Notes under the pieces: model-generated
Databases searched by the model: none
The model's input: the letters and a program-made list of their open reading frames with translations, nothing else
Told to the model about the DNA's origin: nothing
From: a virus
Taxonomy: Duplodnaviria; Caudoviricetes
DNA length: 64,000 bases
Strand: one strand, 5' to 3'
Virus record (IMG/VR): IMGVR_UViG_3300005841_000939
In this document: in pieces, positions 5,373 to 54,677 of the stretch
How positions within the stretch are numbered: position 1 is the stretch's first letter
Layout: each line of letters opens with the position of its first letter
Position numbers and translations under genes: made by a program

Positions 5373-8300
5373 TTAGATTATCTCGTTCCACCACTCAACA
5401 CCATTCTTGACAACAAGCCAATGAACGACACATGGAGCAGGTGAACTTGTTTTAATTCTAAATCCATCCGACGATTTTTCAGTCCAGTACATATTTATAT
5501 TTTCATTACTGGAAAGTATGACGGAATAGCCAGGATCAGTTGGATCAATAGTCATAGATCCTGGATCACCTTGAACACCAATTTCCGGTTTTATCCATAA
5601 TTCGCTATTATACCAGTTATCCAAGTTAGGAGTTGTTGGTGATTCTCCATCAGGAGTTTCAATATATCCTTGTAAGGTTCTACTTCCACAGAAAATAGTA
5701 TCAGGAGTATAAACACCACCAAAAATATCACGATGGAAAGCCATCCAAGAAACTTCTTTTTGTAAAAAGTGACTTGCAGTAATATTGAAACGATTTGGGC
5801 AAAGCTGATTGAAATAAATCTTTTGATTTACAGGACTTGAGAAGAATACAAAGTAATCAGTATTTTTGAAAGGTGAATCAAACGTAATTGTGTCTGATTT
5901 CAATTTTCCATTAACTTTATAGACGCCGGCTTTGAAAACTGTTGTATCTAATGGTCTTGAAACAATCCAATCAACACTTTCACTATATCCATTAAATGAT
6001 GTAAGTATATTAAACTTAACATCTTCTGTACGTTCATAATATGTATTTACGTTTTGATTTGGGGTGAGAGCCACCAAGCCAGCAACGCGCTTATTTTGTG
6101 TTTCGGCCATGTTTCCTCCTCCAACTTCAAATATATCTATACCAAGTTTATTTATTGTGTGAATTTCTGTATAGCTTGGTTTAAAAATGCGTGTTGCATC
6201 TCTAATAAACTGTTCAAATCCATCTTTTTTAGCAGCATCAAACAATAATGATTCTTCTTTAGGAACTTCAAGCTCCAAATCAAAATAGTGAGACTTATAA
6301 ATTTTTGCCAATCCAAACATGTATTCTTTGTCAATTTGTGACAAACGAATTTCATTTGTATCAGTTTTTTCATAAATCCATGGCTCACCAGCATTAAGAA
6401 CCTTACCAGAAACGAATGCAGCACGGGTATCATCAATGATAGTATCAAAGTGCCATGCACCAAATGTTGTATTTGAATACAAATTCTTTCTCAAGTAATT
6501 GTAATCTTCAAATATAGTTCTAACTTTGGTATTTGCCAAATTACCATAGAACAGATACAATGATCCGCCCTTAGTTTGAGTAAAGTCTTTGACATCAACC
6601 CAAATAACTGCAAAGTCATGATCCCAATCAATTTTTGACAACTTAAATGATAATGGCTTTGTCATATCGCTATCTTTATACAAGCGCATAGAGAAATCAC
6701 GGATACCTATATGAGAGAAATTAAATGCTTCTTTAACTGCCAAATTAGATGTTGGGGAAATATTTCCATCAATCTTATAACCATTACCATAAAGAATAAT
6801 AGGAATAACAATTTTTGAACCAATTAATTCGTCGCCAGTTCTTTCAGGCAAACCACTTATTTCAATTTTACGATACCATTTAAATTCAGCTTGTTGTTCA
6901 CGATACTGTGGATTTACATCATATTCTTTTGAAATGTTCCAACTAATTTTGTTCAAAACGATTGGATGGAAATTCTTAACATGATATTGTACATTGAAGT
7001 TATCAGCGTTTCCAACTTCAAGGTAATTCAATCGTGAATTAAAATATTGATCAGGATTGAAAATGAAATATGAAATATTTCTTATATCTTTTGCATATGT
7101 CAAAATATCAATAACAGGTTCTACATTACCTTTAAAATATATTTTGTAATTGACTAATTTTAATTCTGTTCCAGTTGTTGTAGCACTTGCTTTAATAGTA
7201 AATGGTTGATAAACATCAGGTTCAATTACCCAATCTAAATCAAGGATATTAATTTGTGTGTAATCTTTTCCAACAGGTGATGCCGTTGTTGGCGATGTAG
7301 TTGTACTATTTTGGCCGTCTAAATGATCATAAATTTTGTATTGTTGATTGCCATCTCTATCATAATAGATTGCTTTCCACAAATTACGTTTGAAATTGTA
7401 TTGAACGGTGAAGAATGATGTTTGTTCAACTTCATCTGGAAGTGTTGAGAATAAGGTAATCCATTGATCACGATAAACTCTATCTTTCCATTCAATAGGA
7501 TATGAAAGACTACTTGATGAATTCAAGTCAATAATGTTTTGTTGAAATTGTGGTCGTGGATAAACTTCTGATCCAACAATATTTGAAATTTGACCTACAA
7601 GTGAATATGTTGAAAGTTTATGATCATAAATCTTGTCATCATTTTCAATAGCAAATGATGTTGTTATATAAACATTTTTCAACTGTGAATTAGTTGTAGG
7701 TAATTCATATGTCCAATAATTTGTACCTATTTTGAATTCTCTGTGATGAAATGAATTCAAATCAACATAACGAGTACCATCAAGCAAATATTTTATTTCT
7801 CTTGGGGAATATGTGTCGCCACTGACCTTTTCATGTGTTGACAACAACAAACGTAAATCAAAACTCTTTGTATTGTTGAAAGAAGTTGTGATTACCTCTG
7901 TTGGAATATTCTTTGGAAATAAACGTTGTGCAAATACTTCAATCCCTGGTTGTTGATTATGTTTGAATGTGGTATTCTTTTTAGAATCAATAATATCCTT
8001 CTCAAATACATAAAGAATTTCATTTCTAGAAATATTTACATCAATCAAGTTTTTCAAATTTTTACTAACAGTGTCTTGACCAAACATAACAAATAAATCT
8101 TCAAATTGCTCAACGTTAATTAATGAGAATTCATTTCTTAACAATTTGGAATCAATTACGTTATAGTTTTCAATACGACGATTTGCATAACCTTCTAAAA
8201 TATTATCAAATACACTGCCAGTCCAAATGGTCATATCCAAAATATGTACAAATACTTCATCAATTTCTGTTTGCTCACCAATGAATTGATAATCACACTT

Positions 8301-9356
8301 ATTAATTACATTCAATAAATTTCTCTTCCAGAAGAAATAAAAATGTGAAGGATCATAAAAAGATTTCTTAGTATCAATAAGATCATCGGATACCAGAATA
8401 ACATCGGTATATAATGGTTTTTCAAAATTCAAGAAAACGTTTATGTATTTGTTTTTTCTTACATCAGAATTAGGTTCAACAACTAAGAATGCATAATTTT
8501 TAGTCAATGAATTAGTTGGAGCAGTCCAATAAAAAACAATTAGTTTATCTTTATTTGTGTAAATGTTAATCGGATTAAATGTAGTAATATCAACTTCTTT
8601 TGGAATTATTTCGCGCATAGAAACGCGAGTATTTTTACCAAATGGAATTGTCCAATCATACCAATTTGAAAGACTGATACGCCCTTCGTTCTTAACATAG
8701 TTTGTCAATAACGAAGTTGAATTTGTTGAATCATACTCATTGATTGTTAATGTAAAGCCTTCAGTAATTTGTTGATCTGGCATTGTAGCTTTAGTAACAA
8801 TAACTTTTCTACGTAACCAAATTTTTAAAGCACAATCAAATGGAATATCTGTTGGCAAATCATTTACATCCAATGTCTTTTTGAAAACCATGCCAGATAA
8901 TTTGCCAGTTGAATCATATTCATCATCCAAATAGATTGATGGATTTTCAGCTTTACCAACCAATACAGGAATGGGTCTACTAACTTCACGAATTGTGTAA
9001 ATTCCTTCAACTGCAATATCAACATCACCAACTTGGATACCATAAATCGGATCTAAAACCATTTCGGCAACAATTGTATCTAAAACTACAGATTCAACAC
9101 CATAATTGGCAATGAAAACTGCACGATAATTGATTAAGTTGTCAATTACATCTGATGGAACGATTGGATCAAAAATATCAATGTTTCCATCAAGCAATTC
9201 AGGATAAACTACATTTGAATTTGCAATAATTTCTTTTCTAAAAATCTTTCCACCAATAGATTGTCCAAAAATGACCTTATCAGCAGACATACCAACTTGA
9301 TTTGAATATGGATTACCACGGGTCAAGTTAAACGCTATATTTTTATTGACTGTCAT
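5373..9356 (-). CDS. Large baseplate protein with DUF2341-like domain and C-terminal beta-repeat module (1327 aa)
   Basis: WYRKIEI...PLSFKLSKIDWDHDFAVIWVDV...LYLFYGN matches the DUF2341 pattern. FKPSYTEI resembles the KPAHT C-terminal motif of P2 gpI-type wedge proteins. C-terminal repeats are similar to the gp6 insert. Confidence 0.6.
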   Translation of the reverse strand: MTVNKNIAFNLTRGNPYSNQVGMSADKVIFGQSIGGKIFRKEIIANSNVVYPELLDGNIDIFDPIVPSDVIDNLINYRAVFIANYGVESVVLDTIVAEMVLDPIYGIQVGDVDIAVEGIYTIREVSRPIPVLVGKAENPSIYLDDEYDSTGKLSGMVFKKTLDVNDLPTDIPFDCALKIWLRRKVIVTKATMPDQQITEGFTLTINEYDSTNSTSLLTNYVKNEGRISLSNWYDWTIPFGKNTRVSMREIIPKEVDITTFNPINIYTNKDKLIVFYWTAPTNSLTKNYAFLVVEPNSDVRKNKYINVFLNFEKPLYTDVILVSDDLIDTKKSFYDPSHFYFFWKRNLLNVINKCDYQFIGEQTEIDEVFVHILDMTIWTGSVFDNILEGYANRRIENYNVIDSKLLRNEFSLINVEQFEDLFVMFGQDTVSKNLKNLIDVNISRNEILYVFEKDIIDSKKNTTFKHNQQPGIEVFAQRLFPKNIPTEVITTSFNNTKSFDLRLLLSTHEKVSGDTYSPREIKYLLDGTRYVDLNSFHHREFKIGTNYWTYELPTTNSQLKNVYITTSFAIENDDKIYDHKLSTYSLVGQISNIVGSEVYPRPQFQQNIIDLNSSSSLSYPIEWKDRVYRDQWITLFSTLPDEVEQTSFFTVQYNFKRNLWKAIYYDRDGNQQYKIYDHLDGQNSTTTSPTTASPVGKDYTQINILDLDWVIEPDVYQPFTIKASATTTGTELKLVNYKIYFKGNVEPVIDILTYAKDIRNISYFIFNPDQYFNSRLNYLEVGNADNFNVQYHVKNFHPIVLNKISWNISKEYDVNPQYREQQAEFKWYRKIEISGLPERTGDELIGSKIVIPIILYGNGYKIDGNISPTSNLAVKEAFNFSHIGIRDFSMRLYKDSDMTKPLSFKLSKIDWDHDFAVIWVDVKDFTQTKGGSLYLFYGNLANTKVRTIFEDYNYLRKNLYSNTTFGAWHFDTIIDDTRAAFVSGKVLNAGEPWIYEKTDTNEIRLSQIDKEYMFGLAKIYKSHYFDLELEVPKEESLLFDAAKKDGFEQFIRDATRIFKPSYTEIHTINKLGIDIFEVGGGNMAETQNKRVAGLVALTPNQNVNTYYERTEDVKFNILTSFNGYSESVDWIVSRPLDTTVFKAGVYKVNGKLKSDTITFDSPFKNTDYFVFFSSPVNQKIYFNQLCPNRFNITASHFLQKEVSWMAFHRDIFGGVYTPDTIFCGSRTLQGYIETPDGESPTTPNLDNWYNSELWIKPEIGVQGDPGSMTIDPTDPGYSVILSSNENINMYWTEKSSDGFRIKTSSPAPCVVHWLVVKNGVEWWNEII

Positions 9357-11092
9357 TAGTAATCCTTGAAGATAATATGTAGTCTATTATCATTTATCAC
9401 TACTTGATTTATAATCTTATGTGAGAAATCCATATATGATTTTAAATTATCGTTATAAAAAGTCTTATCTTTGATCAAAACTGGATATTCAGCAGAGAAA
9501 CCTTCTTGATAAACACGCACAAATCGTTCATAACGTCCAAAAGTTCCACTTAATGGGAACATAGAAGTCTTTCCATCTTCAATTATGATTTCTATGACAT
9601 CATCTATTAAAATAATTGGATCTAAACCACCAGATGTTGATGGAAACGATGCAATTTCAGTTCCGTCTCTGGTTATTGTCATCTTTTCCAAATGTGGAAC
9701 TTGTAAAGCGAAGTCTGATAGTGTCTTAATACCAGTTGTGTTTGATGAATATGACCAAACCATTGCATTTGAACCAGAAATTGATACCAAACCATTTAAA
9801 CAATCTCTAGGTACTACCTTTTCAACAACAATTGTCTTATCTCCAGAAACTTCAAACTGTTCAATTGATTTATCATACTTAACAGGAGTATTTTTGTCAA
9901 ATTGATAGAACAAACTATCATCAATTTGAATTAATGTATAAAGATTCAATGTTTTACGAACTTTAACAACATCACCAACGATTGCAAAGTCTTCTTTTAT
10001 TGAAGTAATCAAATCATCTTGCGAAGATGAATCATATGCCGCACCAAATGTATAAATTTTGTTCTCTTGAACACCATATTTTACATTTGCAACATATGTT
10101 TGATCATTTGAAAGTCTAAAACCAGAATAGAAACCATTTACTGGTAATGTTGATGCAAATTCTTCTTTAAAATTCTTAAAAGTAAAATCTGAACTAACAG
10201 TATTACCTAAACTACTTGGATATGTGATTCCCAAATCCTCTAAACCAATTATCAATGCTTGAAGGTTTTCAAATTCACCCTTCAAATATCTATCTGTGAT
10301 CTTTTCATTGCGTTTATCAATATTATATGAAAGAATCAATTGGGGATCTTCTTCCTCTTCATTGAAAAATATTTTTATATATGTTGGTGAAACTTGAGCT
10401 TTAAGCACATACCAAACATCAGCTTTAATGTTGCGTACATTGAAATCACCCCATGATGCTAAGAATGTTTCTTTAACTTCACCAGTTTCAACATCAATTG
10501 ACCGCATCCCTAAACCAACATCAAAATTATAAACACCTGGACCAACGAAATAATAATCAGTAATACCAAAATTGTTATTTTGAGTTGAAAAATGTTCTTC
10601 GCCCTTAAGAATCAATTCAAATTTCTTCAATAAATCACCATCAATAATTGACTTATCAAAAATAAATTTTACTTCAATTTCAAATACTGATGATGACACA
10701 TCTGTCAAATACATAAATGGAGCAGCACCATGATTGTCACCAATACCAACAGTTTTATCAGTTGTTGTGCTTCCACTAAATGCGTTTGCATTGACAAATT
10801 CAAATTTATCAGTGTATTTTAATACATTTTCATTTTTATATGAGTCAAGGATATATGGTAATGATATACCTGTATATTTTAATTGAGTATCAGATTTACG
10901 AACAACAGTTTTCCATACATCATCTTGTTCAACTCTTACATTCCAATTCAATTGACGATTATTTCCAAAATTATCAATAAATACCTGCTTTGTATTAGAG
11001 AACAATTTGTCAGGATAAAAACTCGCAACCATTTCAGCATTAGCAAAACGTGAAAAATCAAAAGTCTGATTGTTTAAAATCAAATTACTCAT
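9356..11092 (-). CDS. Baseplate-associated protein with ConA/LamG-like beta-sandwich (578 aa)
   Basis: Overlaps both neighbours. FEIEVKF...DYYFVG...WYVLKAQVSPTYIKIFFN is a lectin-fold pattern. Confidence 0.5.
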   Translation of the reverse strand: MSNLILNNQTFDFSRFANAEMVASFYPDKLFSNTKQVFIDNFGNNRQLNWNVRVEQDDVWKTVVRKSDTQLKYTGISLPYILDSYKNENVLKYTDKFEFVNANAFSGSTTTDKTVGIGDNHGAAPFMYLTDVSSSVFEIEVKFIFDKSIIDGDLLKKFELILKGEEHFSTQNNNFGITDYYFVGPGVYNFDVGLGMRSIDVETGEVKETFLASWGDFNVRNIKADVWYVLKAQVSPTYIKIFFNEEEEDPQLILSYNIDKRNEKITDRYLKGEFENLQALIIGLEDLGITYPSSLGNTVSSDFTFKNFKEEFASTLPVNGFYSGFRLSNDQTYVANVKYGVQENKIYTFGAAYDSSSQDDLITSIKEDFAIVGDVVKVRKTLNLYTLIQIDDSLFYQFDKNTPVKYDKSIEQFEVSGDKTIVVEKVVPRDCLNGLVSISGSNAMVWSYSSNTTGIKTLSDFALQVPHLEKMTITRDGTEIASFPSTSGGLDPIILIDDVIEIIIEDGKTSMFPLSGTFGRYERFVRVYQEGFSAEYPVLIKDKTFYNDNLKSYMDFSHKIINQVVINDNRLHIIFKDY

Positions 11093-16104: not shown

Positions 16105-19100
16105 TTATGCCTCTAATTCTATAATGATATTACCTTTTGTTGGGAACTCAAAACGACTCAAAACAATATCGCCTGTAAATTGGAATTCTTTAACATTGGT
16201 TGTTGGATTTCTAATATCAAATAATGGTTCAATGATAGTAAACAATGATGGATCCTTAGCAAGTAATTCAAGAACTTTCTTGCGCTTTACTTGTTGAACG
16301 GTTTCAACACCAGTTACAACAGCATCAGTAACATAATCGGATGTTGATAATCCAATATTTCTATTCATTGCAATTTGAGCAGTTTGAACACCAGCAAGAT
16401 TTAAAATTGTTTTTTCCAATTCACCATAATGTAGTGTTTCACCCAATTCATGAGAATCCGCAAGGAAATAATCATTGATCGCTTTATTTATTGCAGTCTT
16501 GATAGATTCTCCACTTGCGTTTTTCAATTTCTTGAAACGAACACGAACGTCAATAGGAACATATTTTGCTGTGAAAATTTGATGTTCAACTGTTGCCATT
16601 GCCTTGAAATTATTATTCAATGTATCTAACATCCAATCAGTTTGTTGCTTTGTTAAATAATTTCCATAACGTGGCAATCCTATAATGAAAATATAATTGA
16701 AGAAATACTTTGTCAACTCATCAGCAGAAATAAATCCACTCTCAGCAATTTCCTTATATGATAATACTTGAGTTTTTATCAAATAATCTGAAAACATTTG
16801 ATTACAGAAAGATGCATAATCATCAAGAGAAACCACACGGTCTTGACGAAGATTTGCACTACCAGCATTTGCACGCAATTCTTCAACTGTTTCAATGTTT
16901 GCACCACTAAATGCATTTGTTGGTTGTTGAATTGAAAGAATCTCTTCTGTTATTTGTGTTCCTTCACTATCGTAAATTGTACCAACTTGGATTTGCGCAC
17001 CTGAAGCAAAATATGCATCCTTTTTCAATCCAACTAATTGAATAAATTGATCTTCAAAATTAATGGTAATGTCATCATCACCAAGAATATTTTCTGAAAT
17101 GACGATTGTATCGGATAAAGTATTTGGAGGAATATTTCCATCAATTCCAACAGTTCTCAAACCAAAAATAATTATTTCTTTTCCAACTGGATCAGTACCA
17201 TATGTTACGCCATCACCAAACCAAATTTCAATTTTCTTATATTCATTTACACGAACGAAGAATACCTTAGATCCTGGTTTTGTATCAATAGTTGCCGCAA
17301 GATTACTTGCATTATCCCATTCTTCCCAATCACCATCAGGATCCTTCAAGAAAATTCTCAAATCAGAATAAGAAACATCATCTAAATCAAGATAGAATTT
17401 TATTTCGTTGATAGATGTTCTATCAGCAGTAAATGCAGCACTTAAATAATTATTTGCTACATCAATAGCACCATTTTGATTAATATATGACAACTTAATG
17501 TCACCTTGTCTCAATGAATCTATTGAAAATGTTTCTGGAACATTTGAATAACGAATACCGGGCAATGTACCATCGTTACTGATTTGACCTGCAAAATTAA
17601 TTGTTCCGTGCTTTTGATAAATGTATTCAGATGAAAAATCGGCGAACCAATCTGCTACAACTTGTCCTTCAAAACCAGTTTCTATATTCAATGTAAAACC
17701 AGTATTTGTTTTATCAGTGTACCATGAATTGATATTTTGATTTGTTACAATATGTAAACCATAATTAGCATCTTGGAAAGCAGTATCAAAAGTAATTTGT
17801 CTAGTAACGACATCACCTGAAAGAGTAACAGTACCCTTCTTTTGTGTTGATGTTGTTGCTTCATCTTGTACCGCTTGATCACCAGAAAACACGAAAGTTG
17901 AATATGAAACTGTTCCTGTGAATGAACGCTCAGTATTTACTTTGAAACCTTTACTTGTTTTATCTGTATACCAAACACGAACATTGTCAGATGGAGTCAA
18001 GAAAACAGTATAATCAACTGGTTCGCCTGCAATTTCTGGAATTTCTGTATCAAAAGAAACATCAAATGTTCTTACAGCATCTTCTTTAAAACGAGTTGCA
18101 ATCCAATTGACATTACCATCAAAACCTGTGTTTGCTTCAACATTGATTGTGAAACCTTTTTCACTCTTTGAAGAAAACCATATTTGAACATTTTGGTCGG
18201 GAGTTAATTCTAAAATATATTCAATAACTTCATTTGGTGCTGATGTTGTGAACGGAGTATCAAAAGAAACATAAACACTATTGATACCATCAACGAATTT
18301 AACGTAACCACTTTTTTGTTCAGTTGTTGTGTAATCTATTTTTGGAATTACTTGGAAATTACCAAAACGTTGACCTGGATCTTTTGATAAAGCTTTAATA
18401 TCTGTATCAGGATCAACATAATTAGGATAAATTTTTGCAATTGTTACTTCGTTATATCCAGGTTCTTTTGATGTAACATTCAAAACAGCATCATAATTGG
18501 TACCAGGAGAATCTGGTGTTACAATTTGTAAATTGATGTTGAAAACTGGTTGTGTAACATCCCATGTGTTTACATCAAATACTTGTGATGAAACTTCACC
18601 GGAATAGAAAGAATAAACTTGACCTTCTACAAGAGCATTAAAAGGTGGTTTATCACCATCTTGATTAATTATCAAGTGAATTTGTTTTATACCATTTGCA
18701 GTTGATTCCAACTTATCATATGAAAATTGAACACTGTCCAAATTTTCCATACCAAGAACACCAACATAAAATCTTCCTAAACTATTATTTTGAACTTCTT
18801 CAAGAACATAAAAATCACCTGAAGAATCTGTTGGCTTCAATTGTAAAGTTGTAATAATATCATCTTGACGTTGTTGTGCTGAATCGGGATCAGCAATGAC
18901 ACTTAATGATGGCTTGCTTGTTTGCTTATCATAATTAAATAATACAAAGTAATTTGTACTTGGAACTACAGAAAATGAAACTGGATTTGTTGTAATTGTT
19001 CTATTAAATGGTTGACCAACAGAAGAAGCGTCAGAAGGATCAAACATCGGAACATTGTTAGTATCAAATCCTTTAAAGTTTGTTGGATCTAAACGATCCA

Positions 19101-19713
19101 AAACAGATAATGGTTTTGTATCAGACAATGTTAAAGAAATTTTCTGTGGATCAAAAGTTGGTGTTGCACTTGCACCGGATGTTCCACTTGTCCAAAAAGA
19201 AACTGGTTTTGTTAATGGCAATTGATTTCCATCGTAAGCAAAATCATTTTGTGTAACAGTACGTGTTCCATAACCTTTAATCAAATAAAGGATTTGATTT
19301 GTGTTGGTGAAAACAAAGTTTTGGTTTGATGGTGTTGCTTTTTGTGATGGAAATTGAGAATATGCAGGAATTTCAAAGAAAGCGTTTTCTTTACCAAAGC
19401 AATATTCGGGAGATAATGAACCAACCGCGGAAAGAGTTGCAGCAACATCACCTCTAGGATTGTATGCCAAAAGACGTGCAATTCTATTCAAATTTTTCCA
19501 ACGCTTTGCACTTGGCAAGAAGACTTCATTTGCAACTGAATTTGCATAATAACCAAATAGAGAACCTAAATAGGCTTCAAGGTCTACCCAATTACTGATA
19601 TTTGATTGAGCAAAGTCTACATCTTTATAAGTTTTGGTTTCTCTAAGATATTGAATCAATTCATTACGAAGCGCATCATAATCAATTGCAGTGTAATTAA
19701 TATTGATGGGCAT
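16105..19713 (-). CDS. gp6: Baseplate wedge subunit gp6-like with large insertions (1202 aa)
   Basis: N-terminus DYDALRNELIQYL...DFAQSN...LEAYLG...YANSVANEVFLPSA...ARLLAYNPR. Also IWFGDGVTYG, GGxxxE-type SGANIETVEELR and QDRVVSLDDY motifs. Confidence 0.9.
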   Translation of the reverse strand: MPININYTAIDYDALRNELIQYLRETKTYKDVDFAQSNISNWVDLEAYLGSLFGYYANSVANEVFLPSAKRWKNLNRIARLLAYNPRGDVAATLSAVGSLSPEYCFGKENAFFEIPAYSQFPSQKATPSNQNFVFTNTNQILYLIKGYGTRTVTQNDFAYDGNQLPLTKPVSFWTSGTSGASATPTFDPQKISLTLSDTKPLSVLDRLDPTNFKGFDTNNVPMFDPSDASSVGQPFNRTITTNPVSFSVVPSTNYFVLFNYDKQTSKPSLSVIADPDSAQQRQDDIITTLQLKPTDSSGDFYVLEEVQNNSLGRFYVGVLGMENLDSVQFSYDKLESTANGIKQIHLIINQDGDKPPFNALVEGQVYSFYSGEVSSQVFDVNTWDVTQPVFNINLQIVTPDSPGTNYDAVLNVTSKEPGYNEVTIAKIYPNYVDPDTDIKALSKDPGQRFGNFQVIPKIDYTTTEQKSGYVKFVDGINSVYVSFDTPFTTSAPNEVIEYILELTPDQNVQIWFSSKSEKGFTINVEANTGFDGNVNWIATRFKEDAVRTFDVSFDTEIPEIAGEPVDYTVFLTPSDNVRVWYTDKTSKGFKVNTERSFTGTVSYSTFVFSGDQAVQDEATTSTQKKGTVTLSGDVVTRQITFDTAFQDANYGLHIVTNQNINSWYTDKTNTGFTLNIETGFEGQVVADWFADFSSEYIYQKHGTINFAGQISNDGTLPGIRYSNVPETFSIDSLRQGDIKLSYINQNGAIDVANNYLSAAFTADRTSINEIKFYLDLDDVSYSDLRIFLKDPDGDWEEWDNASNLAATIDTKPGSKVFFVRVNEYKKIEIWFGDGVTYGTDPVGKEIIIFGLRTVGIDGNIPPNTLSDTIVISENILGDDDITINFEDQFIQLVGLKKDAYFASGAQIQVGTIYDSEGTQITEEILSIQQPTNAFSGANIETVEELRANAGSANLRQDRVVSLDDYASFCNQMFSDYLIKTQVLSYKEIAESGFISADELTKYFFNYIFIIGLPRYGNYLTKQQTDWMLDTLNNNFKAMATVEHQIFTAKYVPIDVRVRFKKLKNASGESIKTAINKAINDYFLADSHELGETLHYGELEKTILNLAGVQTAQIAMNRNIGLSTSDYVTDAVVTGVETVQQVKRKKVLELLAKDPSLFTIIEPLFDIRNPTTNVKEFQFTGDIVLSRFEFPTKGNIIIELEA

Positions 19714-19714
19714 C

Positions 19715-20098
19715 TTATAATTTCTCCAAAGAAACGCTTACTGAATCAACTTGTTGTGTATTGGCTATTTGATAGATTACTTGAACGTCATAAGATGTAG
19801 AATCTGAATCCATAACAACATTTATACTGATAATTGTTATTCTAGTTTCCCAATTCTTCAAACTTTCTTCTGCATCTGTTCCTATACGTGTAGCAGTGGT
19901 TTCATCAAATGGTTCAAAGAGGAATGTTTTAATTTTTGATCCATAATCAGGCATGAAGATTCTTGTTCCCTTAGGAGTATTCAAAATCATATAAATGGAT
20001 TGTTTGATACTATCTATGTTTTGGATAGAACTCAAATCGCCAGATGAGTTTACATCAGGATTTATAGGTAAGTCTTGATAATAAATCTGCGTAGCCAT
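19715..20098 (-). CDS. gp25: Baseplate wedge subunit gp25 (GPW/gp25 family)
   Basis: SIKQSIYMILNTPKGTRIFMPDYGS...LFEP...LKNWETRITI; sits between gp5 and gp6. Confidence 0.93.
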   Translation of the reverse strand: MATQIYYQDLPINPDVNSSGDLSSIQNIDSIKQSIYMILNTPKGTRIFMPDYGSKIKTFLFEPFDETTATRIGTDAEESLKNWETRITIISINVVMDSDSTSYDVQVIYQIANTQQVDSVSVSLEKL

Positions 20099-20104
20099 AA
20101 CGCA

Positions 20105-20112
20105 TATTTATA
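20105..20112 (-). promoter_or_regulatory. T4-type late promoter TATAAATA upstream of gp25
   Basis: Exact motif on the minus strand, ending 6 nt before the ATG. Confidence 0.75.
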
Positions 20113-20131: not shown

Positions 20132-21745
20132 TTACTTTGTTGGTATTGTTGGTAATTTTGTATTACCCGGGATCTTCAATTCAGTCTTTGTTAAGTTTGG
20201 AATATCAACATTCTTTACAGTTGGTTTGGCTGGCGTTGGTGCAGCACCCGCAGTTGCTGTTTTTGCTGGACGACCGGTACCAGTTGCAACTCCAGGAAGA
20301 ACAATTAATCCATGCGCCGTTAATGGCGCACCCAAATCTGCTGGGCCTCTATTTCTTATAAATCCACCACAATCAATACCAAGTACGGCATAACTTATTT
20401 GCGAAACAATACAATTTCCAGTAATATTCATATCACCACGAACATAAGCAGCACCAACAACGCTTAAATCACCATTTATTTTTACATTTCCAGTCACGTC
20501 AATCTCAGATGCTGCCATTTTAACTTTTCCAGCGGCAATCAAATTAACATCTTTGCCAGCATTAACACTTACGTCACCTACAGCGTTAACATCAGTTGAG
20601 CCTTTAACAGTTGCTGCAAGATTTCCATCAACCATTAATGAAACATTTTTTGTAACTTTAGCATTCATGTTTCCATGGCAATTAACATTAACATTTTGTT
20701 GAATTTCTGCATTTAATGCACCCTTTTCAACAATTACATCAACATCACCCTCACGTACAACAATTCCAACATTTTTCTTGGCATCAATTTGAACATTACT
20801 ATCACATTGAATGAAAATATCACCTATAGGATATAATTTATATTTACCTGCGATATAGATTTCATAATCACCTTCTATACCTACTTCTTGATTTGTTCCA
20901 GTTGATCCATTTTTACCATTAAATTCTTTTTTATTTCCAGCTTCATCAATAAAATCAATGTGATTTTTATGAATGACATAAATTCGTTCTTTACCATTTC
21001 TATTATCAATGACTACAGTTGTACCTTGAGCACTTGTTGTAGTTGTAATATCTCTATTACTATCACTTTGCGTAATTTCTGGAATGTTTATGACAGGTTT
21101 ATCAATTCTAGGATTTACAACCGCTGAACTTGCCCAAGAATCGGGAAGAGGTATTGCTACATCTCTAGGATTAAACTCCGTTCTAAACTTTTTGATCGCT
21201 TGGATTTTCTCTTCAATGATGACTGTTCTCTGTGATTTAGTTGTAGACCAGTCGCGTTCCATTGGTGCCATAGCAAAATAATATGGCTCCATGTGGTTGC
21301 CACCATCAAAGAATAAGAAAACCCAATTACCACGCTTTGGAACAACAAATTGGCCGCCAGTACCACATGCATTTCCAAACGGATCAATGCTTTCAGCAGC
21401 AAATTTTGTAGGATCAATTGTTGGATATTTTGATGCTGTGAAATCTGTACCAGCAACAGTACTACTGCTTCCAGGATCATATCTATCACCAGGGACATCT
21501 GGTGTTGAATTTATGTGATCAATATTGTTGTTGTTATAACCACCGGACCAAGATAATCCTAAAGCAGGTTTAGCCCATGGCAATTGTATTACGGGTGTTT
21601 TACTTCCATTTGTATCATGCACACCAAAAACTCTAACTTGAACTCTACCAGCATCTAATGGATCAGCATTGTTTTCAACAATACCACGATAAATCCCATC
21701 AAGAGAATAAGAAGGTTTTTCAAAATTATTTGGATTAATCGGCAT
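20132..21745 (-). CDS. gp5: Baseplate hub/central spike gp5-like: OB-fold plus beta-helix, no lysozyme domain evident
   Basis: YRGIVENNADPLDAGRVQVRVFGVH...LPWA...VPKRGNWVFLFF is the gp5 OB-fold; followed by V-x-G-N/D octamer repeats. Confidence 0.9.
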   Translation of the reverse strand: MPINPNNFEKPSYSLDGIYRGIVENNADPLDAGRVQVRVFGVHDTNGSKTPVIQLPWAKPALGLSWSGGYNNNNIDHINSTPDVPGDRYDPGSSSTVAGTDFTASKYPTIDPTKFAAESIDPFGNACGTGGQFVVPKRGNWVFLFFDGGNHMEPYYFAMAPMERDWSTTKSQRTVIIEEKIQAIKKFRTEFNPRDVAIPLPDSWASSAVVNPRIDKPVINIPEITQSDSNRDITTTTSAQGTTVVIDNRNGKERIYVIHKNHIDFIDEAGNKKEFNGKNGSTGTNQEVGIEGDYEIYIAGKYKLYPIGDIFIQCDSNVQIDAKKNVGIVVREGDVDVIVEKGALNAEIQQNVNVNCHGNMNAKVTKNVSLMVDGNLAATVKGSTDVNAVGDVSVNAGKDVNLIAAGKVKMAASEIDVTGNVKINGDLSVVGAAYVRGDMNITGNCIVSQISYAVLGIDCGGFIRNRGPADLGAPLTAHGLIVLPGVATGTGRPAKTATAGAAPTPAKPTVKNVDIPNLTKTELKIPGNTKLPTIPTK

Positions 21746-39163: not shown

Positions 39164-39171
39164 TATTTATA
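39164..39171 (-). promoter_or_regulatory. T4-type late promoter TATAAATA upstream of tape-measure-like A
   Basis: Exact motif 8 nt before the ATG. Confidence 0.75.
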
Positions 39172-48427: not shown

Positions 48428-48435
48428 TATTTATA
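48428..48435 (-). promoter_or_regulatory. T4-type late promoter TATAAATA upstream of gp14
   Basis: Exact motif 6 nt before the ATG. Confidence 0.75.
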
Positions 48436-52112: not shown

Positions 52113-52120
52113 TATTTATA
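52113..52120 (-). promoter_or_regulatory. T4-type late promoter TATAAATA
   Basis: Exact motif 6 nt before ATG 52106, downstream of the gp23 terminator. Confidence 0.75.
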
Positions 52121-54669: not shown

Positions 54670-54677
54670 TATTTATA
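54670..54677 (-). promoter_or_regulatory. T4-type late promoter TATAAATA upstream of gp22-gp23
   Basis: Exact intergenic motif. Confidence 0.75.

Follow-up and report, generated by a model that had tools for sequence, protein, structure and literature searches.

A candidate in-frame nested gene at the seam of a fused gene in the baseplate region of a large metagenomic phage

P0001 is a 1327-amino acid (aa) open reading frame (ORF) in the baseplate gene cluster of a metagenomic phage (IMG/VR record IMGVR_UViG_3300005841_000939). It lies on the minus strand at 5373..9356 of the 64,000-nucleotide (nt) stretch analyzed here, hereafter the window; the parent genome, G000, has 262,529 bp and 35.9% G+C. 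In this study, we report that P0001 is colinear with two adjacent, translationally coupled genes of related phages and that a strong Shine-Dalgarno (SD) sequence and a start codon are retained inside it, behind a conserved motif. The methionine encoded by this start codon (M1083) almost certainly marks the seam where two neighboring genes became one, judging from the sequences compared. Upstream of the seam is the N-part (residues 1-1082; 6111..9356, minus strand), the counterpart of a separate gene in the split relatives, and downstream is a 245-aa module (P0002). We lean toward the view that ribosomes still initiate at position 6110, so that the module would be made as a free tip besides the 1327-aa fusion.

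At the seam, the minus strand reads gaa gtt GGA GGA GGA aac ATG gcc. The SD sequence GGAGGAGG (6122-6115, minus strand) lies in the codons of Gly1079-Gly1081. It is followed by the spacer AAAC (6114-6111, minus strand), as read from the sequence, and by the candidate start codon of the nested gene, the ATG at 6110-6108 (minus strand). The difference 9356-6110 is 3246, or 3 x 1082, which makes this ATG codon 1083 of the ORF 5373..9356. The spacing from GGAGGAGG to the ATG is 4 nt and the 5' GGAGG core is 7 nt from the ATG; an SD thus stands at working distance from an in-frame start codon. The predicted nested coding sequence (CDS) ends with the TAA at 5375-5373 (minus strand) and, stop codon included, covers 5373..6110 on the minus strand.

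SD strength was expressed as the predicted duplex energy with the 3' tail of 16S rRNA and was scored over the whole 262,529-bp genome. At -12.1 kcal/mol, the M1083 site outranks every other site scored, both the 338 putative starts and the 987 ATGs that lie in frame inside genes. The 338 putative starts have a median of -2.9 kcal/mol and a best value of -10.0 kcal/mol, and each of the other internal ATGs is weaker than the one at M1083. The first-pass annotation, made from the letters alone, had described an in-frame ATG at 6110 behind an SD stronger than those of real starts, just after the motif FKPSYTEI. All three points hold: the motif lies at 6162..6185 (minus strand), near the C-terminal end of the N-part and 18 residues upstream of M1083. 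That three GGA codons for glycine merely happen to resemble an SD beside an ordinary internal Met has a negligible probability in our estimate; GGAGG, moreover, is scarcer in the window than expected. GGA makes up 34% of the glycine codons of the gene, and Gly-Gly-Gly gives GGAG in 56% of resamplings, so that such a run could arise readily. The chance reading is already contradicted by the rank of the site among the 987 internal ATGs, by its conservation in homologues, and by its Met, which aligns with the initiator of a gene of its own in related phages.

Full-length homologues of P0001 were searched for among 5.8 billion proteins, and homologues of the 245-aa module alone among 1.84 billion representatives. 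The full-length search yielded 20 homologues of 1327-1393 aa with 41-52% identity (fused clade A). Each spans the entire P0001 query and all 20 are therefore fused. The module search gave three kinds of protein: additional members of clade A; stand-alone proteins of 219-280 aa (33-40% identity); and long proteins of 976-1358 aa with the module at the C-terminus (clade B; about 25-31% BLAST identity). The initiator Met of the stand-alone proteins aligns with the M1083 column, and the next residue is A, G, S, or T. Within clade A, three proteins (P0025, P0055, and P0056) were called as the module alone, with 244-245 aa, and may be real secondary splits or choices of the gene caller. Further scans of the viral contig collection returned the same five contigs and no more, with clade B absent there, and no relative was found in the genome contig collection.

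Nine split loci (L006-L014) were found in IMG/VR on contigs of 33-214 kb; L008 and L009 are identical in the sequence read, which leaves eight distinct loci. In every split locus, the module is an ORF of its own (251-286 aa) immediately after a homologue of the N-part, which has 1017-1054 aa (1674 aa in L012), and the stop of the upstream gene abuts or overlaps the module ATG. BLASTP matches of the upstream gene to P0001 lie within residues 7-1082 (E 1e-17 to 1e-32). The match is nearly full-length in L008 and consists of one or two segments in the other split loci. The upstream proteins terminate with ..FKP[GDA][FY]M.I.. followed by approximately 20 residues and the stop, for example ..FKPGFMEI..KLETNNTGEN*. 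The motif is conserved as FKP[SGDA][YF][TM]E in the fused and split forms; fused clade B has WKPA.T. Homologues of the 1670-, 578-, 560-, and 643-aa genes flank the split pair, as they flank P0001 in the window; the 578-aa and 560-aa homologues were checked in five split loci, and L008 gave no 578-aa match. Because of the conserved gene order and the matches of N-part and module, P0001 is colinear with the two adjacent genes of its relatives. Colinear neighbors and a junction placed at the stop and start codons were found in the nine split loci, and a conserved order in those checked for it.

Some split and fused junctions are nearly identical. L012 reads A-G-E-TAA-AAA-ATG in a single frame, equal to the A-G-E-G-x-M of clade A plus a stop, and the upstream gene of L006 ends in T-G-E-N-stop, to be compared with A-G-E-N-S-M in the fused L002. 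The SD of the split module gene sits in the final codons of the upstream gene, with energies of -5.1 to -9.5 kcal/mol and the sequences GGGGAG, GGAGG, AGGAG, GGGAG, AAGGAG, and AAGGA. It is encoded by GE, GD, EE, KE, or KD, and the purine-rich RNA motif persists. This variation of the encoded residues points to a constraint on the RNA and not on the protein. The first-pass annotation had proposed either a module made both fused and free or two genes fused recently by loss of a stop, and had asked whether related phages encode 5373-6110 separately. The first reading is plausible and has comparative support, in the conserved Met, the retained GGAG, and the rare GTG described below. As to the second, related phages do encode the module separately in the eight distinct split loci, with the ATG at the M1083 column. 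The fusion therefore stands; its recent date does not, since the fusion is common to 23 clade-A proteins that are only 41-52% identical and that group together in the module tree.

In three split loci, L012 (6980-7003), L008, and L009, both genes share one reading frame, with nothing but TAA and one or four sense codons between them. By their sequence, rare stop readthrough in these three loci would recreate the fused protein.

Of the 21 clade-A sequences aligned, 17 have the seam Met, or 19 of 23 when P0027 and P0054 are counted; the partial close relative P0057 also has it (LEVGGGKM). The entropy of the Met column is 0.86 bits vs 2.8 at position -1, 1.8 at -2, and 2.4 at +2, and positions -1, -2, +2, and +3 vary freely. 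The four proteins without Met form one subclade (Shimodaira-Hasegawa-like approximate likelihood ratio test [SH-aLRT], 99%), which reads A-G-V three times and V-G-M once, with Val or Met two residues on. L003 is the only one of the four with DNA. Its Val is encoded by GTG, a codon used for 3 of the 78 Val residues of the gene (4%), and AAGGGGGT stands 6 nt before this GTG. Its duplex energy matches that of the window site, at -12.1 kcal/mol. The GTG looks like a relocated start, as far as the sequence tells.

DNA was available for six clade-A loci, the window and L001-L005. GGAG occurs 4-9 nt before the start codon in all six, with differing residues at the seam (VGGGN, AGGGS, AGENS, AGEGG, SGEGN, and TAGGN). 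The first-pass annotation had named non-conservation of the SD codons in homologues as an outcome that would speak against it, and this outcome was not observed. The six seam SDs range from -7.4 to -12.1 kcal/mol. Each locus has 26-33 other internal ATGs, and at most one of these has a stronger SD. Synonymous resampling by the codon usage of each gene gave GGAG with a probability of 0.34-0.71 per locus and approximately 0.011 jointly, in a test that was chosen post hoc and treated the six sequences as independent.

A rival account accepts the seam and regards the start signals as a silent relic or by-product: the linker codons would happen to read GGAG, the Met would be kept for packing, and only the 1327-aa protein would be made. 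We consider this possible but rather unlikely. Several observations weigh against continued initiation at the seam. A stricter resampling, in which the energy had to be at least as strong as observed, was not significant in any locus (p 0.10-0.76), so that the SD-like sequence would be largely forced by the conserved E-A-G-E/G-G. This segment could be kept as a glycine-rich linker, and the clade-A sequences by themselves are compatible with a constraint on the protein or on the mRNA; the codon-level evidence comes from the six clade-A DNA sequences. The predicted mRNA structure near the seam is not consistently weak, and no conserved late-promoter motif TATAAATA for a separate transcript was found upstream of the seam. 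SD use in the genome is mostly weak, with only 14% of the 338 putative starts at or below -6 kcal/mol, which makes the SD dependence of initiation uncertain. Given these weak SDs and a shortage of GGAGG in the window (19 observed vs 33.2 +/- 5.5 expected), pairing with an SD may matter little for initiation in the host. Clade B SDs are weak as well, at -2.4 to -5.7 kcal/mol. The energy-based resampling, the seam structure that is not locally open, the generally weak phage SDs, and the clade B values all favor a silent relic, as does the (near) invariance of residues E1077 and G1079 in the protein.

Other features weigh against a silent relic. Decay of the signals would be expected at 41-52% identity, yet the Met is kept while its neighbors vary. 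Where the Met is lost, it becomes Ala and not a hydrophobic substitute, and L003 offers its rare GTG two codons on behind an equally strong SD. In addition, the split relatives vary the SD-encoding residues while a purine-rich SD stays, and the GGAGG at the seam belongs to a sequence that is otherwise avoided in the window.

A further alternative, to which we give very little credence, is that the glycine-rich stretch serves as a translational pause for folding of the N-part or as a proteolytic maturation site that releases the tip. The sequence lies exactly between two folding units, and an [IV]-[LIFY]-E motif with the invariant E1077 is present, in which I/L-x-E followed by A/V resembles the sites of T4-type prohead proteases. 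However, the split forms, in which there is nothing to cleave, conserve this Glu too (..KLE[ST]N..). T4-type prohead proteases such as T4 gp21 act inside heads and not on baseplates. Prohead protease-like cleavage at I/L-x-E was rejected on these two grounds. A self-cleaving C-terminal chaperone of the Peptidase_S74 type was likewise rejected as an identity for the module, which had no Pfam match to such families at E <= 0.1 and whose folds are lectin-like and not chaperone-like. Neither a pause nor cleavage accounts for the conserved Met or the relocated GTG.

The DNA of clade B comes from the metagenome loci L018-L024. The seam of this clade has the pattern ..TL[IV]-M-[AS]xLL.DE... Eight of the nine full-length proteins and two shorter fragments carry the Met, whereas L020 has TTG in its place, a codon that accounts for 30% of the Leu codons there. 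Here, the Met falls within the conserved hydrophobic TL[IV]M and could be structural, a further point against continued initiation. The clade B Met lends weak support to a kept start, on sequence grounds.

In the maximum likelihood (ML) module tree, clade A (23 rows), the split group (16), and clade B (9) are each on one side of a branch, with supports of 82, 97, and 100, respectively. Under a provisional midpoint root on clade B, a single fission explains the groups at least as well as a pair of fusions. A working start at the seam is compatible with both histories. A fission by stop gain is viable only if the module could already be translated alone, and two independent fusions would mean that the Met was kept by both fused clades.

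The module was modeled from 29 aligned sequences, and both structure predictions, of the module and of a longer junction-spanning segment, are of monomers. The module model has a mean predicted local distance difference test (pLDDT) score of 85.7 and a predicted template modeling (pTM) score of 0.86, and it is all-beta with two sandwich domains. Module residues 1-9 are below pLDDT 50. In the junction-spanning model, the seam is at approximately 60, and the N-part is of low confidence (36-67). The fold search was run with the module model, all against representatives. Residues 50-127 (5730..5963, minus strand) form a lectin-like "foot" jellyroll, with the C-terminal domain of the cyanophage Pam1 tailspike as the best match (7eea; Z 9.7, 1.9 A, 22% identity). 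The foot domains of the R1 and R2 pyocin fibers (6cxb and 6cu2; Z 8.2 and 7.7), AP22 gp53 (4mtm; 7.8), the C-terminus of the LKA1 tailspike (4ru4; 7.2), discoidin I (2w94; 7.2), and Helix pomatia agglutinin (HPA; 2ccv; 7.1) follow. Overall, these superpositions have Z 7.1-9.7, a root-mean-square deviation of 1.9-2.9 A over 66-77 residues, and 10-22% identity. The modeled jellyroll is thus superposable on the foot domains of the pyocins, AP22, and HPA. The module sequence profile also had 7eea as its top match in the PDB (E 0.035), and Foldseek alone found nothing below E 0.001 for the module.

The same set of structures was described as one lectin-type jellyroll fold that forms a trimeric, polysaccharide-binding distal tip (Salazar et al., 2019; PMC6363177). 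From the fold of the model, the module is best read as a receptor-binding-type tip. Residues 50-127 superpose on the R-type pyocin fibers, AP22 gp53, the LKA1 and phi297 tailspike C-termini, discoidin, HPA, and Pam1. The module differs from this set in its low identity (10-22%) and in the second beta-sandwich of approximately 110 residues that follows the foot domain and has no clear match; the likeness is one of fold, in a monomer model. Beyond the module, a distant paralogue of it (22% identity, E 1e-7) was observed inside the gp6-like wedge gene, at 17641-18234 on the minus strand.

We propose the following scheme. The seam joins the genes of a peripheral baseplate or fiber protein of approximately 1080 aa and of a protein of approximately 245 aa whose first domain has the foot fold. 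Large phages of a sister clade have these as separate, translationally coupled genes. In the clade of the window, the stop is gone, so that the tip is made covalently attached to the N-part, with the SD and start codon kept inside the fused ORF. Initiation at 6110 on the same late mRNA would then yield a free tip in addition to the fused protein. The same signals would serve termination-coupled initiation in the split clade, whereas the fused clade would have to initiate de novo, which fits the strong SD. The motif, the seam, and the retention of the start signals are observed, and the initiation event and the role of the free copy are what we infer.

In known fibers, the foot fold acts as a trimer. 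An obligate two-product gene might therefore solve a symmetry mismatch, with one tethered and two free foot protomers, an idea that we regard as improbable. If the N-part were present in a single copy per wedge, each fused chain would bring one foot protomer, and initiation at M1083 would supply two more; the split clade would use three free protomers. If true, this would explain why the strongest SD of the genome is internal and why it outlived the fusion.

In-frame nested genes expressed by internal initiation include lambda C/Nu3, T7 gene 4A/4B, phiX174 A/A*, and E. coli infB and clpB. The present case resembles them in having an SD and a start codon in frame within a longer ORF, in a short product equal to the C-terminal part of the long one, and in that both products would come from one mRNA. 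It differs in being predicted from sequence, in a short product that would be a receptor-binding-type baseplate tip, and in an internal start that can be followed back to the initiator of a gene that once was, or elsewhere is, separate. Internal initiation is an active topic in bacteria: it reportedly gives rise to two Fha isoforms in the type VI secretion system of Vibrio (PMC13389060), where the likeness extends to a contractile injection machine, and N-terminal proteoforms are the subject of a review (PMC13515050). Nested genes of this kind at a fusion seam are familiar in biology; what is new here is a candidate example in an unnamed family of large environmental phages.

Fused and split forms are also known among phage fibers, as in lambda stf vs orf401/orf314 and the gp37 fiber of T2/S16 with its separate gp38 adhesin. 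A further case is the single Ltf of T5 vs LtfA/LtfB of DT57C (PMC4728585). These fibers share with P0001 and its relatives the occurrence as one polypeptide or as two adjacent genes in related phages, with products that assemble. Unlike them, the present proteins, which have no sequence relationship to these fibers, keep the initiation signals of the downstream gene in the fused clade over a long divergence.

If the internal start is active, a probable receptor-binding tip would be supplied by one gene in two forms, tethered and free, with consequences, if true, for the assembly and stoichiometry of the elaborate baseplates of large phages. With a kept start inside the fused ORF, a single stop-gain or stop-loss mutation would toggle between one gene and two, and the kept start signal shows a way for genes to merge or separate while remaining functional. 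In annotations, a possible nested CDS should be recorded for the 245-aa module, and the 1327-aa family can be described as a baseplate or fiber protein with a lectin-like tip.

P0001 lies downstream of gp5-, gp25-, and gp6-like genes in a myovirus-type baseplate cluster: a gp5-like hub gene (20132-21745), a gp25-like gene (19715-20098), and a gp6-like gene of 1202 aa (16105-19713), after which genes of 1670, 578, 1327, 560, and 643 aa follow in series. Pfam and PHROGs gave no family for P0001 save a weak DUF2341 match at residues 895-945. P0002 had no Pfam family at E <= 0.1 and no PHROG name, and the clade B and split upstream proteins were likewise without a Pfam or PHROG name. Megablast and tblastn against GenBank phages returned no match to P0001, and its whole-protein profile found nothing in the PDB. 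The label "baseplate gene" is therefore positional and not based on homology, since neither a family nor a GenBank phage matched. A P2 gpI-type wedge protein (Tail_P2_I, PF09684) was considered as well and gave no match at E <= 10 across the 262-kb genome. Adjacent baseplate genes overlap by 1 nt at 9356 and by 8 nt at 11085-11092. Translational coupling thus seems to be the rule in this baseplate operon, and the split relatives show it for their N-part and module genes.

The T4 late-promoter consensus TATAAATA is enriched in the window (13 observed vs 6.75 expected), and 12 of the copies are on the coding minus strand. Examples are at 20105-20112, 39164-39171, 48428-48435, 52113-52120, and 54670-54677. 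Several copies shortly precede a gene start and may thus be late promoters of the T4 type. An exact copy also lies inside the module CDS (5492-5499, minus strand), approximately 120 nt before the stop, and overlaps the invariant N-I-N-x-Y-W motif (AAT ATA AAT). Equivalent copies occur in all six clade-A loci, at 608-662 nt past the seam in L001-L005. The in-module copy may serve the 560-aa gene downstream as an embedded late promoter, or it may simply result from the conservation of these residues.

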